A stretch of DNA of 22,180 nt from positions 1 to 22,180 of the forward strand of contig JBHIAI010000017.1 of the NCBI GenBank assembly GCA_046861655.1. The letters are read 5' to 3'. Shown in pieces: positions 1-22,180 of this stretch. A program made the position numbers. Numbering within the stretch: the stretch's first letter is position 1; each line of letters opens with the position of its first letter. The stretch comes from Fidelibacterota bacterium. Lineage in GTDB: Bacteria; Fidelibacterota; Marinisomatia; Marinisomatales; S15-B10.

Positions 1-3000
1 GGACCTCCCCCTTTGTCAGGCACCTGGCCCCGTTGCGTGTCCTGAACGTTCTCAGCCCAGTTCACATCCACTTCTCCTTCATACACGAGAATGGAACTTT
101 CTTCTTCGCCTGCCACTGCCCGGTACTTGGTTCCCCGGATGGCCGCCACTGCCGTAGGGGTCCGGATGGCCACATTTTTCTTCTCACCGAAAGCGGCTTT
201 GGCACTCACCCATATCTGACCCTTCTTCAGATTGGCGGAAAAGTCTTTCTTCAGGGGCGCCACGCTGGCCTCAGTGAGAATGAGTTCCGCGTTTTCCCCG
301 ATCCGGACCTTGCCTCCCCCGGTAAGGGTGATCTCCGCCCGGGATTTGGCCTTGGTCTGCACCCCATCCTTTACAAAAACAGGGTGTTTTACCCTGGCCT
401 TCTGCCACTCCTGGGCCTCCGCCGGCCGCACCTGAACCATCCCCAGGGGAAGAGTTATCTTCCCGAATTCTCTGGCAGGCCCCGGGGAATTTCTAACATT
501 GAACGGGGCAGGCGGGGAAACCGAAATGGCGACGGTGGCCACAACGACAATCAACGTCATCAAGATAAGTTTTGGTTTCATGGTTGTTCTCCCTCCCTCG
601 CGGAATAAGTTATGAAACATCCCATGTTTATACACGGAATAATGAACGGTTAGGGGGTTAAGGGTTAGGGGGTTAGGGGTTAGGGGTGAGAGGTCAGGGC
701 GACGAATTACGTTTGTCCCGGTCTCCCGTCTCGCGTGTCCTTATTTCTGCCCAGTGTCGCTGTCTCCTGCCACTTCCGTCAGGGGCTTTCCTGTTCCCCC
801 GTAGCGGTGCATAACGATTTCCGCCAGGATGCTCAAAGCCATCTCCTCGGGAGACTTCCCTCTAAGATTAAGGCCCGCGGGGGAGTGAAACCGGCTGAGT
901 TCCTCCACCGTGACCCCCTCTTTCATCAGGTAGTCCCTTACAAGACCCGTCCTTTTCCTGCTGGCGACCATGGCCACAAAGGGAATGCCCCTCTTTAGAG
1001 CCTCATGGGCCACCTTGTGATCGTCCCGATGATGCGTTGCCAGGATGAGGTACTCGGGTTCCCGGTTCTCCTCACTCAGGACCTCTCGCCCAGTAACAAC
1101 CTCAAATCCCAGAAGTTGTCCTAACTTGACAAGAGTCTCCACCAGCTTTCCAATCCCCCGGACGACCATAACCGGTTTCTTCAGCTGGGGTTCCACCAGA
1201 ATTGACATGGCTCCTCCACACGGAATTCCCGATGCCAGGGTGTCGCTGTCCAGGGTAATCGTTACCATCCGGGGTGTCCCGTTCCGGAGCGTCTCTTTCG
1301 CCATCTTCCCGATCCTGTCTTCCACACACCCCGCTCCAATCCACCCTGAAATGCGGTTTCCCCGGAGGTCATAGATGGCCCGGTCACCCACCTTGCCGGA
1401 GGTGGACCCTTCCACAGCTACCACGGTGGCCAGGGCAAAGTCCTTTCGGGCCGCCTTCAGGTCCGCCGCAAGCTGGAAGATATTGTTGTCGGTATCCGTT
1501 ATGTGTTATGAGTTATGCGTTATCCTTGCCACTTCATCTTTGTTCCTTGATACTTGGCACATAATCTCCCAGTAGTCAGAGACCGTATCATAATCGAGGA
1601 GAACCTCATCCGACGGCACCGGAGTGACCTCTGAATCCTCCCGGTGATCCTCCAACACACCCTTGCATCCCCGGTCTCCGGCAACGGCCATGATCTCCGG
1701 GAAAAACGTTCGGGGAAAGATAACGGGATTCCCCTGGTTTCCCCTGAAGGTGGGAAAGACAATATGTTTTCCTTTTGACGACTCAAACCGGTTTCGGAGG
1801 TGGGTCAGCGTTTCCACGGTCAGAAGCGGCATATCCCCCAGGATGACGGCGGCGCCGTCACACCTGTTTCGGATCGCTTCCACTCCCGTTCTTATAGATC
1901 CTGACATCCCTTCTTTCCACCGACGGTTCCGGACCACCCTCACGGGAAGTGCATGGAGTGCCTTGCGCACGCGCCACCCCTGGAACCCCACAACCGCCAC
2001 CACCGGTTGGAATCCCGCCTCCACTATCCTCTGGCAGATTCTCACAATCACGGGCGTCCCATCCGCCGGGAAACTGAAAAGAAGCTTGTTCTCTCTCCCG
2101 GTACCGAACCTTCGGGACCCCCCCGCGGCCAGAATCACCGCCCCCACCTTCATGGACCGATTTTCCTTAGGAGTGATAGGATATCCTACGCTCTTAGCGC
2201 CTCAAGGACCTTCTCCGGGGTGATGGGCAACTCCCTGATTCTGACCCCGATGGCATCATACACCGCATTGGCAATGGCACCGATAACCGGGAGCGTGGCT
2301 CCCTCTCCCACTTCCTTTGCCCCGAAGGGTCCCCTCGGTTCATACGATGGAACCGTCGAACTCTCAATGTGAGGGATATCCCCGGCCGTGGGCAATAGAT
2401 AGTCATGGAGATTAGGATTTAGAATCTGGCCCTTTTTGTCGAAGATCACCCCCTCAAGAAGGGTCTCACCGAGCATCATGGCAATGGCCCCTTCCGCCTG
2501 GCCTTCCACACCCAGAGGATTGATGGGTGTGCCCACATCGTGGGCATCGGTGAATTTCACCACCTTGATCTCACCGGTATCCAGATCCACCTCAACTTCG
2601 CACACGCACGCGGTAAAAGAATAGGCGGGGGAGGTGCCTACGGTGGCCCCTTTGAAGGATCCTCCAAGGTCTTTTGGAGGCGAATAGTGCCCCCGGCCCA
2701 CCACCGGTCCGTTCAGAGCGAAACAACGGGCAGCCACTTCGTGCCAGGCAAGGCCATTACCGGGATGTCCTTTCTCGAACACACGGTCGTCCCGGATTTC
2801 CAGGCGTTCGGCAGGAACGTCCATCATTTGGGACCCTACTTCGAGAAGCTGCCGCCGGATGCTTTCCCCTGCCATCTTGCACGCGTTGCCGCCCATGAGA
2901 GTAACCCGGGAAGAGTAGGATCCGAATCCCAGGGGTGTGGTGTCGGTATCGGCATGGACCACCTTAATCCTGTCGTAGGTGATACCCATGGCCTCCGCTG

Positions 3001-21000: not shown

Positions 21001-22180
21001 CTCCTTGGGCCGGTCACCGTCATAGATGGCAGAAGAGACGGTGCCCGCCTTCAGATAAGTCTCCACCAGCACGCCCAAGGGGTCATCGGTGTCATCGGCC
21101 AGGGCCCCAGTGATCGACCTTGACCCCAACTGGAAGTCGTCGTCAACTACGTAACACCCGGCATTCTCAATGGTCTTGATCAATCCCAGAGGGGGCTGTT
21201 CGCAGAATGACCCTGATATGACAACCCGTATCTTGTCCTCAGGCTCCCGGTCCACCTTCTCCAGGATTGAGAGGACCCGGGTGAGAAAATCATTGTGGTC
21301 CTCTACACTCATGATGTAGCCCGCCCGCAGTACCAGGTAATGATCTACCGCGGAGATCCGGTGGGGAACCTGGGCCCTGAAATCGGACAGTCTTTTGACC
21401 AGACGGCGGTTCTCGTTGTATACCCTTATGGCCCGGTTGAGCCGGTCGATGGTCACCCGGCGACCGTTCAGTTTCTCCAGATGTTTTGCCAGGAGTTCAA
21501 GCTGGCGACGGTAGAACTGCCCTCCGGTGGACGGATCGAGATTCTGGGGAAAGTCAAGATAGAAAACGAAGGACTGGGGAAAATGCAGCCGGAACACTCC
21601 CGACAGGTTGCGAATGACGTCACAGATGGAGGGAAACAGAAATCCATCGAAATCCTTGAAATTCCCATCCAGGGCCATTTCTATGACCGTGCGGGGCAGG
21701 TGACAGATATACGATTGGAAAAAGGCATCCCCTTTGACCACGGACACTCTCTCCCCCCCTCCGAAGATTCCCACGGGAAGCATACCGGCCGCATGGATGA
21801 TCTCCCTGGGGACATAGATGGGCAAAAACCCGATGACCCTGCGGTCCGTCCCCTGTTTCTTCCACTGGGTGACGTAATCGAAGGAAAGGTCCTCGTAGAG
21901 ATCCCGGGCCAGCTCCATGGCTTCAGGATAGGTCTTAGGGACCACCGGGCTCCTCCCCATTGGATTTCTGCCAGATCCGGTTGAGCATCCCCCGGAACTG
22001 TCTCAGCTGTTCCGGGGTCAGGACGCTGACCAGGTCACTGTCCACGGAGGTGGCAATTTCGTCCATACGACCAAGCAGTCTGCGTCCCTTGGGTGTGAGA
22101 TACAGTCTCACCACCCGCCGGTCGGACGAGGTTCGCCTCCGCTGGACCAGTCCATCCTTTTCCAGCCTGTCTGCCAGTCC

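Follow-up and report, generated by a model that had tools for sequence, protein, structure and literature searches.

A class I benzoyl-CoA reductase cassette in a Marinisomatales genome, with a putative feeder module for aromatic amino acids

The closest described system is the bcrCBAD-dch-had-oah cluster of Thauera aromatica, which also holds a ferredoxin gene and whose class I benzoyl-CoA reductase (BCR) takes electrons from a 2[4Fe-4S] ferredoxin. Reductases of the MBR (MbdONPQ, PDB 9g87) and BZD (BzdNO, PDB 8s02) types belong to the same family. HadBC/HadI of C. difficile and FldBC/FldI with FldH and FldL of C. sporogenes combine a catalytic-type subunit with an ASKHA activator, a 2-oxoacid reductase and a CoA-activating enzyme; the Fld system uses a D-LDH-family reductase and a CoA transferase, and its fermentation ends in phenylpropionate. 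To our knowledge, 2-hydroxyacyl-CoA dehydratases have two subunits. Passages of PMC13416013 mention FldABC, and passages of PMC11971306 describe the subunit architecture and catalytic Glu of class I reductases. A class I pathway is likewise common in another FCB candidate phylum, the Krumholzibacteriota, where passages of PMC10936416 report the bcrABCD pathway with all four subunits in 12 of 40 MAGs; "Marini" has no match in the main text of that paper.

The survey's finding was that anaerobic ring reduction had been credited to the phylum nowhere. This holds for the main-text passages of PMC4725000, PMC10477309, PMC4846661, PMC8166890, PMC8470020, PMC9213671, PMC13390413 and PMC8630151, which do not assign BCR to it; the passages of the last describe Marinisomatota as polysaccharide degraders and nitrogen and sulfur cyclers, not as ring reducers, and the supplements of PMC9213671 gave no match on topic terms. 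However, Table S7 of PMC13170169 (2026) lists bcr, dch, had and oah in three Marinisomatales MAGs, uncommented in the parts of its text available, just as the survey had cautioned that supplements of MAG surveys might, and passages of PMC7916938 name Marinimicrobia among inferred anaerobic hydrocarbon degraders. The chemistry is known and the lineage under-reported, with two apparently uncharacterised variants. The surprise is limited, because the ring-reduction core is textbook and similar extensions to FCB phyla have been published.

The window is the whole stretch of 22,180 nucleotides (contig C197 of genome G000). The genome is 92.8% complete in 198 contigs, a limit that applies to all absences reported here. 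Every gene named by the survey (BcrCBAD, Dch, Had, Oah, a ligase, beta-oxidation enzymes, a molybdenum enzyme and its maturation genes) was recovered as an intact ORF of one putatively MarR-regulated cassette on the minus strand (741-22180). Four of them (BcrA, ligase, thiolase, hydratase/dehydrogenase) had their start placed downstream of the longest-ORF start. Scores below are in bits, followed by the model cut-off.

21935..22180, minus: MarR-family regulator, 3' part; the 5' part is the end of contig C78 (2800-2987); precedes bcrC (upstream) in most relatives
20776..21960, minus: BcrC, class I benzoyl-CoA reductase electron-transfer subunit; TIGR02263 429.4 vs 421.15; Cys86/113/343
19454..20743, minus: BcrB, catalytic subunit, Thauera type; TIGR02260 617.9 vs 486.55; Glu57, Cys86/121/364
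18120..19457, minus: BcrA, long Thauera form (445 aa) of the ATP-binding activator subunit; TIGR02259 475.9 vs 578, best match over the whole model; start refined
17189..18037, minus: BcrD, second ATP-binding activator subunit; TIGR02261 283.2 vs 312.85, best match
15418..17202, minus: AMP-forming acyl-CoA ligase, long-chain/PRK12582-like, candidate aryl-lactate ligase; start uncertain; 57-66% identity across the clade's other cassettes
14165..15361, minus: HgdX, lone HGD-D protein, nearest solved relative HadB (2-hydroxyisocaproyl-CoA dehydratase alpha); 159 bits to 3o3m_A; Glu48, Cys77/116/344
13074..14018, minus: PanE/ApbA-family 2-oxoacid reductase; TIGR00745 187.6 vs 141.35
12300..13070, minus: third ASKHA activator, HgdC/HadI type, assigned to HgdX; TIGR00241 145.1 vs 125.4; Cys127/166
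11042..12307, minus: thiolase, cassette-specific form; TIGR01930 414.6 vs 240.55; 64-70% in relatives; start refined
9966..11039, minus: Had; TIGR03201 431.9 vs 338.65
8755..9840, minus: Oah, ring-opening hydrolase; TIGR03200 558.5 vs 464.45
7971..8747, minus: Dch; TIGR03189 229 vs 292.5, best match
5986..7965, minus: 3-hydroxyacyl-CoA dehydrogenase/enoyl-CoA hydratase fusion; start refined
4975..5826, minus: molybdenum enzyme FAD subunit, XdhB/CoxM type; the 43-column Cys loop seen in HcrB is missing
2186..4990, minus: fused 2x[2Fe-2S] and molybdopterin subunit, HcrC-HcrA-like; TIGR03194 960.4 vs 994.55; 588 bits to 1rm6_A against 363 for the runner-up
1506..2153, minus: MocA-like molybdenum cofactor cytidylyltransferase; TIGR03310 134.7 vs 186.45
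741..1424, minus: XdhC-family maturation factor; NF045664 93.2 vs 350, under the cut-off

A promoter scan of the window gave 6 sites against 7.2 expected.

The cassette shares with the T. aromatica cluster the C-B-A-D order, the long BcrA, Thauera-type equivalog scores and the Dch/Had/Oah route. It differs in lacking a ferredoxin gene and in holding, within the same run, MarR, a ligase-HgdX-PanE-activator module and Hcr-like genes. In the profile search, BcrB, BcrC, Had and Oah exceeded their NCBIfam cut-offs; BcrA, BcrD, Dch and the HcrA part stayed below theirs, yet were best matches to those models. BcrA and BcrD each carry GxDxGS and two conserved Cys, as required of a class I enzyme's two ATP-binding subunits, which bridge a [4Fe-4S] cluster. 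BcrB scored 617.9 on TIGR02260 compared with 82.6 on TIGR03191, and reached just 191 bits with MbdO and 81 with BzdO, whereas an MBR-type relative (L058) scored 547 to MbdO. No AFOR match, as a sign of a class II BCR, was present in the genome. In 14 control genomes TIGR02260 was never over its cut-off (0/14) and TIGR03200 was unmatched in 14/14; with these counts, and with the same order of genes seen again in relatives, chance was excluded. The survey's assignment to a Thauera-type class I BCR with Dch, Had and Oah is borne out by subunit motifs, scores and the long BcrA.

The core pathway predicted from these genes is very probably correct. BcrAD would hydrolyse ATP and hand BcrBC the electrons of reduced ferredoxin, and BcrBC would convert benzoyl-CoA to cyclohexa-1,5-diene-1-carbonyl-CoA. 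Ring opening to 3-hydroxypimeloyl-CoA would fall to Dch, Had and Oah, and beta-oxidation, together with a glutaryl-CoA dehydrogenase encoded on contig C110, would yield acetyl-CoA and CO2. Glutaryl-CoA dehydrogenase also serves Lys and Trp breakdown. An SDR and a second thiolase, found in most relatives' cassettes, are missing from the window, so its single beta-oxidation pair may serve the lower pathway only. Outside the cassette the genome encodes KorDABC, two further 2-oxoacid:ferredoxin oxidoreductase pairs, PFOR and two small ferredoxins, whose motif is 7Fe-like in our own reading, unlike the 2[4Fe-4S] donor of Thauera. Terminal acceptors would be N2O and, probably, nitrate, or O2 at low levels. 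Of the nitrate and N2O respiration genes reported by the survey, the N2O part stands, with a clade II NosZ that lies in two pieces on separate contigs, and the nitrate part is weakened: the enzyme belongs to the periplasmic NXR type, with 823 bits to PDB 7b04 and 106 to NarG, and its direction is not fixed by sequence.

The survey had also named a 4-hydroxybenzoyl-CoA reductase. The molybdenum subunit gives a mixed picture. Its nearest structure is T. aromatica HcrA (1rm6_A), and on the family models the next score after the 960.4 of TIGR03194 was 608. Gln214 and Glu726, residues with known roles in HcrA, are aligned to Q385 and E896, and the genes occupy the slot held by canonical hcrCAB in relatives' cassettes. 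Relatives with the canonical architecture scored 811-848 on the HcrA model, but 630 on 1rm6_A against 588 for the window. The FAD subunit lacks a defining feature of this enzyme. The inserted Cys loop of HcrB, visible in the 1rm6_B alignment, binds a [4Fe-4S] cluster; the window's protein has a 43-column gap at this site. PcmR of Geobacter metallireducens is not known to carry the loop either. The window's FAD subunit scored 129.7 on TIGR03195 against a cut-off of 404.55, with the match ending at residue 119, and was nearest to XdhB (206 bits) and nearer CoxM than HcrB (145 vs 82 bits). The 2Fe-2S part scored 177.3 on the HcrC model (cut-off 257.8), below the PucE/XdhC models. Unlike T. aromatica HcrCAB, gamma is fused to alpha, and the enzyme forms a separate clade. 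The loop-less variant is widespread (78 of 80 loci); related loci sought by the FAD subunit on its own numbered 17, most of them distant. The enzyme probably dehydroxylates 4-hydroxybenzoyl-CoA, with electrons entering by a way other than the HcrB [4Fe-4S] cluster.

Four genes inside the cluster were not treated as a unit by the survey, namely HgdX, the PanE-like reductase, the third activator and the adjoining ligase. HgdX was closer to 3o3m_A than to MbdO (100 bits) or BzdO (83), and it displays the catalytic-alpha features of (R)-2-hydroxyacyl-CoA dehydratases (Ser/Glu, three Cys, separate activator); with 190 on NF052455 against a cut-off of 750, it is not HadB itself. The third activator scored far under the BcrA, BcrD and BzdQ cut-offs. 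The genome has three HGD-D genes (bcrB, bcrC and hgdX), all within the window, and no dedicated beta partner of HgdX besides BcrB/BcrC. As a test of a ketopantoate reductase role for PanE, panB (PF02548) was sought; none was found in the genome, and it was present in 11 of 14 controls. At one locus (L127) a single protein joins PanE and an HGD-D domain. In other phyla, genes of IOR-like and PaaK-like type lie near HgdX, as do those of CoA transferases and of ADP-forming ligases. Of the order's 233 genomes, HgdX was detected in 30; 29 of these are in the phylum sample, and all but one of them (28) also own a BCR beta subunit. The module resembles the Had and Fld systems in the components listed above, but has one dehydratase subunit, a PanE-family reductase and an AMP ligase, and its context is oxidative, ending in BCR.

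The module may supply the reductase from within the cell, a proposal to which we give just short of an even chance. Phe and Tyr would be transaminated to arylpyruvate, PanE would reduce this to (R)-aryllactate, and the ligase would form the CoA ester. With its own activator to start it, HgdX would dehydrate this ester to cinnamoyl- or coumaroyl-CoA, from which the hydratase/dehydrogenase and thiolase would remove acetyl-CoA to give benzoyl- or 4-hydroxybenzoyl-CoA. Several aminotransferases are encoded in the genome; IOR alpha and PaaK were not found in it, and PadG has no match over the cut-off. Against this proposal, five cassettes (G119, G162, G111, G199, G205) keep HgdX but have neither the fused hydratase/dehydrogenase nor the 65% thiolase, the HgdX of three genomes (G283, G347, G083) is divergent (32-34%) with no activator in the stretch examined, and a phenyllactate gene set of D. 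multivorans is read oppositely, towards phenylpyruvate, in passages of PMC5109826. The activities, substrates and electron donor are predictions throughout. For the whole combination, a native MarR-regulated benzoyl-CoA cassette with a Phe/Tyr feeder and Hcr-like dehydroxylation, we lean slightly in favour. More tentatively, it might amount to an undescribed route of complete anaerobic Phe/Tyr oxidation bypassing phenylacetate and phenylglyoxylate, with a single-subunit radical dehydratase, a 4-hydroxybenzoyl-CoA reductase without low-potential [4Fe-4S] entry and an exchangeable class I reductase. If so, mineralisers of aromatic amino acids would make up about a tenth of Marinisomatota and include many lineages of FCB, Planctomycetota and Gemmatimonadota, and bcr genes in sediment MAGs would often mark protein decay, not hydrocarbon or lignin use.

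Alternatively, external benzoate and 4-hydroxybenzoate could be degraded, the cassette ligase activating both and the extra module having a side role. The ligase follows bcrD directly in nearly all cassettes and is the cluster's sole ligase; unusual ligase families can activate aromatic acids; elsewhere the genome encodes a homologue of TRAP DctM as well as an ADP-forming acyl-CoA synthetase; and the runs holding the stretch are hydrothermal vent metagenomes, from one study that is possibly the source. We nevertheless consider this rather unlikely. No benzoate-ligase model was among the 25 best matches of the cassette ligase or the top five matches of the other three AMP-ligase ORFs (the four ORFs account for five matches in the genome), so the survey's remark that a benzoate-specific equivalog was lacking holds for the listed matches of all four. 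The cassette has no transporter, and the conserved HgdX-PanE-activator genes would stay unexplained. Growth on free benzoate or 4-hydroxybenzoate, as the survey predicted, is thus unsupported.

It is improbable that HgdX is an alternative catalytic subunit which, with BcrC or its own activator, reduces a 3-hydroxy-, 2-amino- or methylbenzoyl-CoA-like substrate. The Glu and three Cys common to BcrB, BzdO and HadB are retained and co-occurrence with BCR in the order is tight, but the best score is to HadB, and HgdX remains 60-72% identical where the adjoining reductase module changes to the MBR type and also adjoins a Bzd-type reductase. Many loci have no bcrBC within 10 kb (BcrB is adjacent in 14 of 80), and PanE would be unexplained. 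HgdX as a minimal reductase in G166 and G237 was rejected, both genomes passing TIGR03191 and owning a Bzd-type pair.

A lower-pathway role appears very improbable. HgdX would hydrate glutaconyl-CoA to 2-hydroxyglutaryl-CoA, the reverse of the HgdAB reaction, and PanE would oxidise 2-hydroxyglutarate to 2-oxoglutarate, regenerating the reductase's ferredoxin via 2-oxoglutarate:ferredoxin oxidoreductase. KorDABC is encoded, and 2-oxoacid:ferredoxin oxidoreductase genes adjoin the module in G166, G237 and L114. However, the glutaryl-CoA dehydrogenase is closest to glutaryl-CoA dehydrogenases that are presumably decarboxylating (468 bits, vs 198 to 3mpi), so that glutaconyl-CoA would not be released; the AMP ligase works towards activation only, and the module's neighbours elsewhere are of arylpyruvate type.

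Gene identity, order, linkage and distribution are established here, and the survey's attribution of the cassette to a Marinisomatales genome was upheld. By tetranucleotide distance its contig ranks 44 of 89. The MarR gene is split between C197 and C78 and the order is as in the sister genome (G276), which links the two contigs; no exact sequence overlap was found between them. The sister's cassette matches gene for gene as far as a FecR-like gene, and that of G181 is flanked by homologues of C110. G000 and G276 are sisters in the BcrB tree and in the Had+Oah tree. A contig mis-binned from another FCB bacterium, or a misread amino-acid dehydratase in the four genes, is hardly credible and already largely refuted: although the contig has no phylogenetic marker, its GC of 0.575 puts it at the 95th percentile among large contigs and BcrB homologues 75-81% identical turned up in Zixibacteria, Calditrichota, Bacteroidota, Acidobacteriota and further groups, composition, linkage to C78/C22, the sister genome's cassette and both trees speak against the former, and the equivalog scores with Dch/Had/Oah adjacent against the latter.

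A class I beta subunit was detected in 42 of 401 phylum genomes and 14 of 32 families (25 Thauera-, 15 MBR- and 2 Azoarcus-type), 39 of the 42 also having Oah at E<=1e-60. The recurrence noted by the survey is therefore wider than claimed, the Thauera type alone reaching 25/401 genomes in 12 families; a screen at the TIGR02260 cut-off overlooks the MBR and BZD types (17/42). Dearomatisation would be an extra carbon route for the phylum in low-oxygen settings. All three types are swapped inside one orthologous cassette, a natural experiment on the determinants of substrate range, and HgdX and the Hcr-like variant are widespread and open to direct assay. The quick BcrB tree gave 8 changes for 26 Marinisomatota rows, 4 of them forced by starred branches; of the 69 named loci it omitted 21, of which 20 looked like duplicates. 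A constraint that kept the 23 main-clade rows in one group had a p-AU of 0.052; this group was picked once the tree had been seen, and 26 of the 80 rows were dropped. A single origin of Marinisomatota BcrB is neither established nor rejected.

Among the listed contigs from four DNA runs of that one study, none spans the entire stretch, and no RNA run was among the listed holders, which is neutral on either side. Three runs covered 30 of 30 bins and the fourth 24, a coverage that is not independent support.

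The contig lies in a genome of 2.06 Mb (G000, 92.8% complete), and the window covers the contig entirely. It holds 18 minus-strand genes and then a FecR-like gene, in the following order:

minus strand, marR, cut
minus strand, bcrC
minus strand, bcrB
minus strand, bcrA
minus strand, bcrD
minus strand, ligase
14165..15361, minus strand, hgdX (lone HGD-D protein)
minus strand, panE-like gene
minus strand, third activator
minus strand, thiolase
minus strand, had
minus strand, oah
minus strand, dch
minus strand, dehydrogenase/hydratase fusion
4975..5826, minus strand, FAD subunit
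2186..4990, minus strand, fused 2Fe-2S/Mo subunit
minus strand, mocA
minus strand, xdhC
3..635, FecR-like gene, truncated at the contig end

The ring-pathway genes named in the survey's finding were borne out: BcrB, BcrC, Had and Oah passed their NCBIfam cut-offs, and BcrA, BcrD and Dch each had their own model as best match with a score under the cut-off. BcrB is of the Thauera type, as had been proposed (618 bits to TIGR02260, versus 191 to MbdO and 81 to BzdO). The cluster ligands and the catalytic Glu of benzoyl-CoA reductase (BCR), as described in passages of PMC11971306, were present in the window sequences. The ring-reduction core is a known kind of system in an under-reported phylum. 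Judged from sequence, the whole cassette is a variant of a known system, by two sequence-proven differences. A 7-base repeat array was observed in the intergenic region at 5833-5945, between the hydratase/dehydrogenase and FAD subunit genes, with related short arrays near 1495 and 9854.

The tetranucleotide distance of the contig ranked 44 of 89 among contigs of at least 8 kb, and its GC was 0.575 versus 0.556. Contig C78 ends with the missing 5' part of marR, and the order C22-C78-C197, the last being the window's contig, is visible in the sister genome G276. There the rest of the cassette matched gene for gene at 59-90% identity, spread over three contigs; the FecR-like gene is next to xdhC in G276 as well. 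The cassette of another genome, G181, is flanked by homologues of genes on contig C110 of G000, including glutaryl-CoA dehydrogenase. Several of the records with the nearest homologues are titled Fidelibacterota or Ca. Neomarinimicrobiota.

The survey's finding had the trait credited to the phylum nowhere. This stands for the main-text passages covered, none of which attributes a complete class I pathway to the phylum, but not for supplements: in Table S7 of PMC13170169, three Marinisomatales (TCS55) MAGs have a bcrABCD count of 2, oah, and dch or had, while the main text, in the passages seen, credits these genes to Acidobacteriota only. Similar rows probably exist in other supplements. Passages of PMC7916938 place Marinimicrobia among inferred anaerobic hydrocarbon degraders with genes not named for them, and a parallel case is made for Krumholzibacteriota in PMC10936416.

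Among 401 evenly sampled genomes of the phylum, a sample with many incomplete genomes and with relatives that do not count as independent cases, 25 passed TIGR02260, 15 further genomes matched an MBR-type query (E<=1e-100; the query scores 547 bits to MbdO) and two more passed TIGR03191. These three sets do not overlap and give 42 carriers of a class I beta subunit, spread over 14 of 32 families; among the 190 good-quality genomes the carriers number about 31. Oah (E<=1e-60) was matched in 41 genomes, including 39 of the 42 carriers. Four large families had no carrier in the sample (f3, 0/37; f17, 0/38; f26, 0/33; f28, 0/30). In 24 cassettes compared with the window, Had was 58-65% and Oah 67-82% identical, and the genes downstream of the reductase were orthologous irrespective of reductase type. 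A quick tree of Had and Oah (31 rows) contained four switches of reductase type, three of them forced by starred branches. The BcrB clade of the window is common to Zixibacteria, Calditrichota, Bacteroidota, Ignavibacteria, Acidobacteriota and some Proteobacteria, and the BcrBs of three genomes (G216, G252 and G015) fell outside it. A single origin of the main Marinisomatota BcrB group gave a p-AU of 0.052, which neither establishes nor rejects it. The cassette is therefore old, has been exchanged among phyla and is no innovation of this phylum.

Some loci differed from these types. Loci L051-L053 (G001 and G014, family f22) encode a fourth BcrB-like type (427 bits) with a short activator of 264 aa and divergent oah and had (35-38%); its substrate may be another aryl-CoA. 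Two complete MBR-type cassettes (L056 and L057) occur in one genome, G200, and in some cassettes the activator is fused to the neighbouring gene. Separate activator-HgdA-HgdB-like dehydratase operons without ring genes (L063 and L064; f2 and f24) represent the kind of operon that explains many weak TIGR02260 matches.

The label 4-hydroxybenzoyl-CoA reductase (4-HBCR) did not survive the beta-subunit test: the Cys loop present in 1rm6_B and in the cassette's relatives with canonical hcr genes is absent from the window's FAD subunit, which is closer to CoxM than to HcrB. The Mo part scored 588 bits to the 4-HBCR alpha subunit (1rm6_A; next-best 363), and the genes occupy the slot held by hcrC-hcrA-hcrB in most relatives. 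Scanning with an alignment of seven Mo subunits of the loop-less type confirmed at least 556 stretches. Among the best 80, a loop-less FAD subunit accompanied 78 loci and none was detected at the other two; the Mo subunit was fused in 63, and ring-pathway genes lay within 6 kb in 36 at our thresholds. The Geobacter enzyme may likewise lack the beta-subunit loop. Passages of PMC1924859 say of the Geobacter operon only that it resembles that of Thauera. An aromatic aldehyde oxidoreductase or hydroxylase would be the alternative. The enzyme therefore probably functions like 4-HBCR, while the beta-subunit test places it outside that family.

Between bcrD and the thiolase gene, the ligase, hgdX, panE and activator genes follow one another closely. 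HgdX is closest to HadB, and no partner dehydratase gene for it was found in G000. Of the 233 genomes of the order, 30 carry it, and 28 of the 29 HgdX genomes within the phylum sample also carry a BCR beta subunit. Across GTDB, 448 relatives were confirmed; within 10 kb of the best 80, at our thresholds, the neighbours were PanE (34), ligase (33), Had (31), Dch (30) and BcrB (14). Fifteen HgdX loci, annotated further by scanning 69 of 129 candidate ORFs and fusions, held IOR-like and PaaK-like genes, CoA transferases, ADP-forming ligases, a PanE-HGD-D fusion and a PanE-AOR fusion. The former (L127:6727-9162, Gemmatimonadaceae) has a second hgdX and two activators as neighbours, and the latter, PanE fused to aldehyde:ferredoxin oxidoreductase (L114:16254-19175), lies in a Holophagaceae benzoyl-CoA cluster. 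An AOR gene also lies inside a cluster of G150 (L280 on contig C18) with dch, oah, had and canonical hcr, the contig ending in had; the genome, 95% complete, yielded no HGD-D gene.

The PanE family includes D-2-hydroxyacid dehydrogenases, and panB was not found in G000 (92.8% complete). The simplest reading of the module would be that it turns Phe and Tyr into benzoyl-CoA by way of aryl-lactates. Passages of PMC13416013 propose the same series of reactions, as a hypothesis, for an organism that degrades benzene. Against this route, HgdX is a single subunit, the beta-oxidation pair is missing from five cassettes that carry hgdX, no activator lies near the divergent hgdX of three others, and passages of PMC5109826 read phenyllactate genes in the oxidative direction. 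In G000, a single query for each of IOR alpha and PaaK found neither, and no protein reached the PadG cut-off. The predicted growth on free benzoate was the weakest part of the survey's finding.

Outside the cassette, G000 encodes KorDABC, two further 2-oxoacid:ferredoxin oxidoreductases, PFOR and two small ferredoxins, all candidates that could supply electrons to BCR. Of the respiratory genes claimed earlier, clade II NosZ was recovered, split over contigs C171 and C150. For nitrate respiration a type II Mo enzyme is present (split over C112 and C143), but it is closest to the anammox nitrite oxidoreductase (823 bits, versus 106 to NarG); in a heterotrophic host it would likely act in nitrate reduction. 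Heme-copper oxidase fragments are present too. Such a gene set is consistent with a facultative anaerobe, and passages of PMC11971306 describe class I BCR as usually found in organisms of that kind. The C112/C143 enzyme (L185:3-3507, L186:74-1897) is of the periplasmic NXR type, with a gamma subunit that is a cytochrome c/EB_dh fusion. Contig C168 of G000 encodes a 1133-aa protein in which an Fe4S4/molybdopterin oxidoreductase is joined to a NifS-like cysteine desulfurase (L174:1301-4702).
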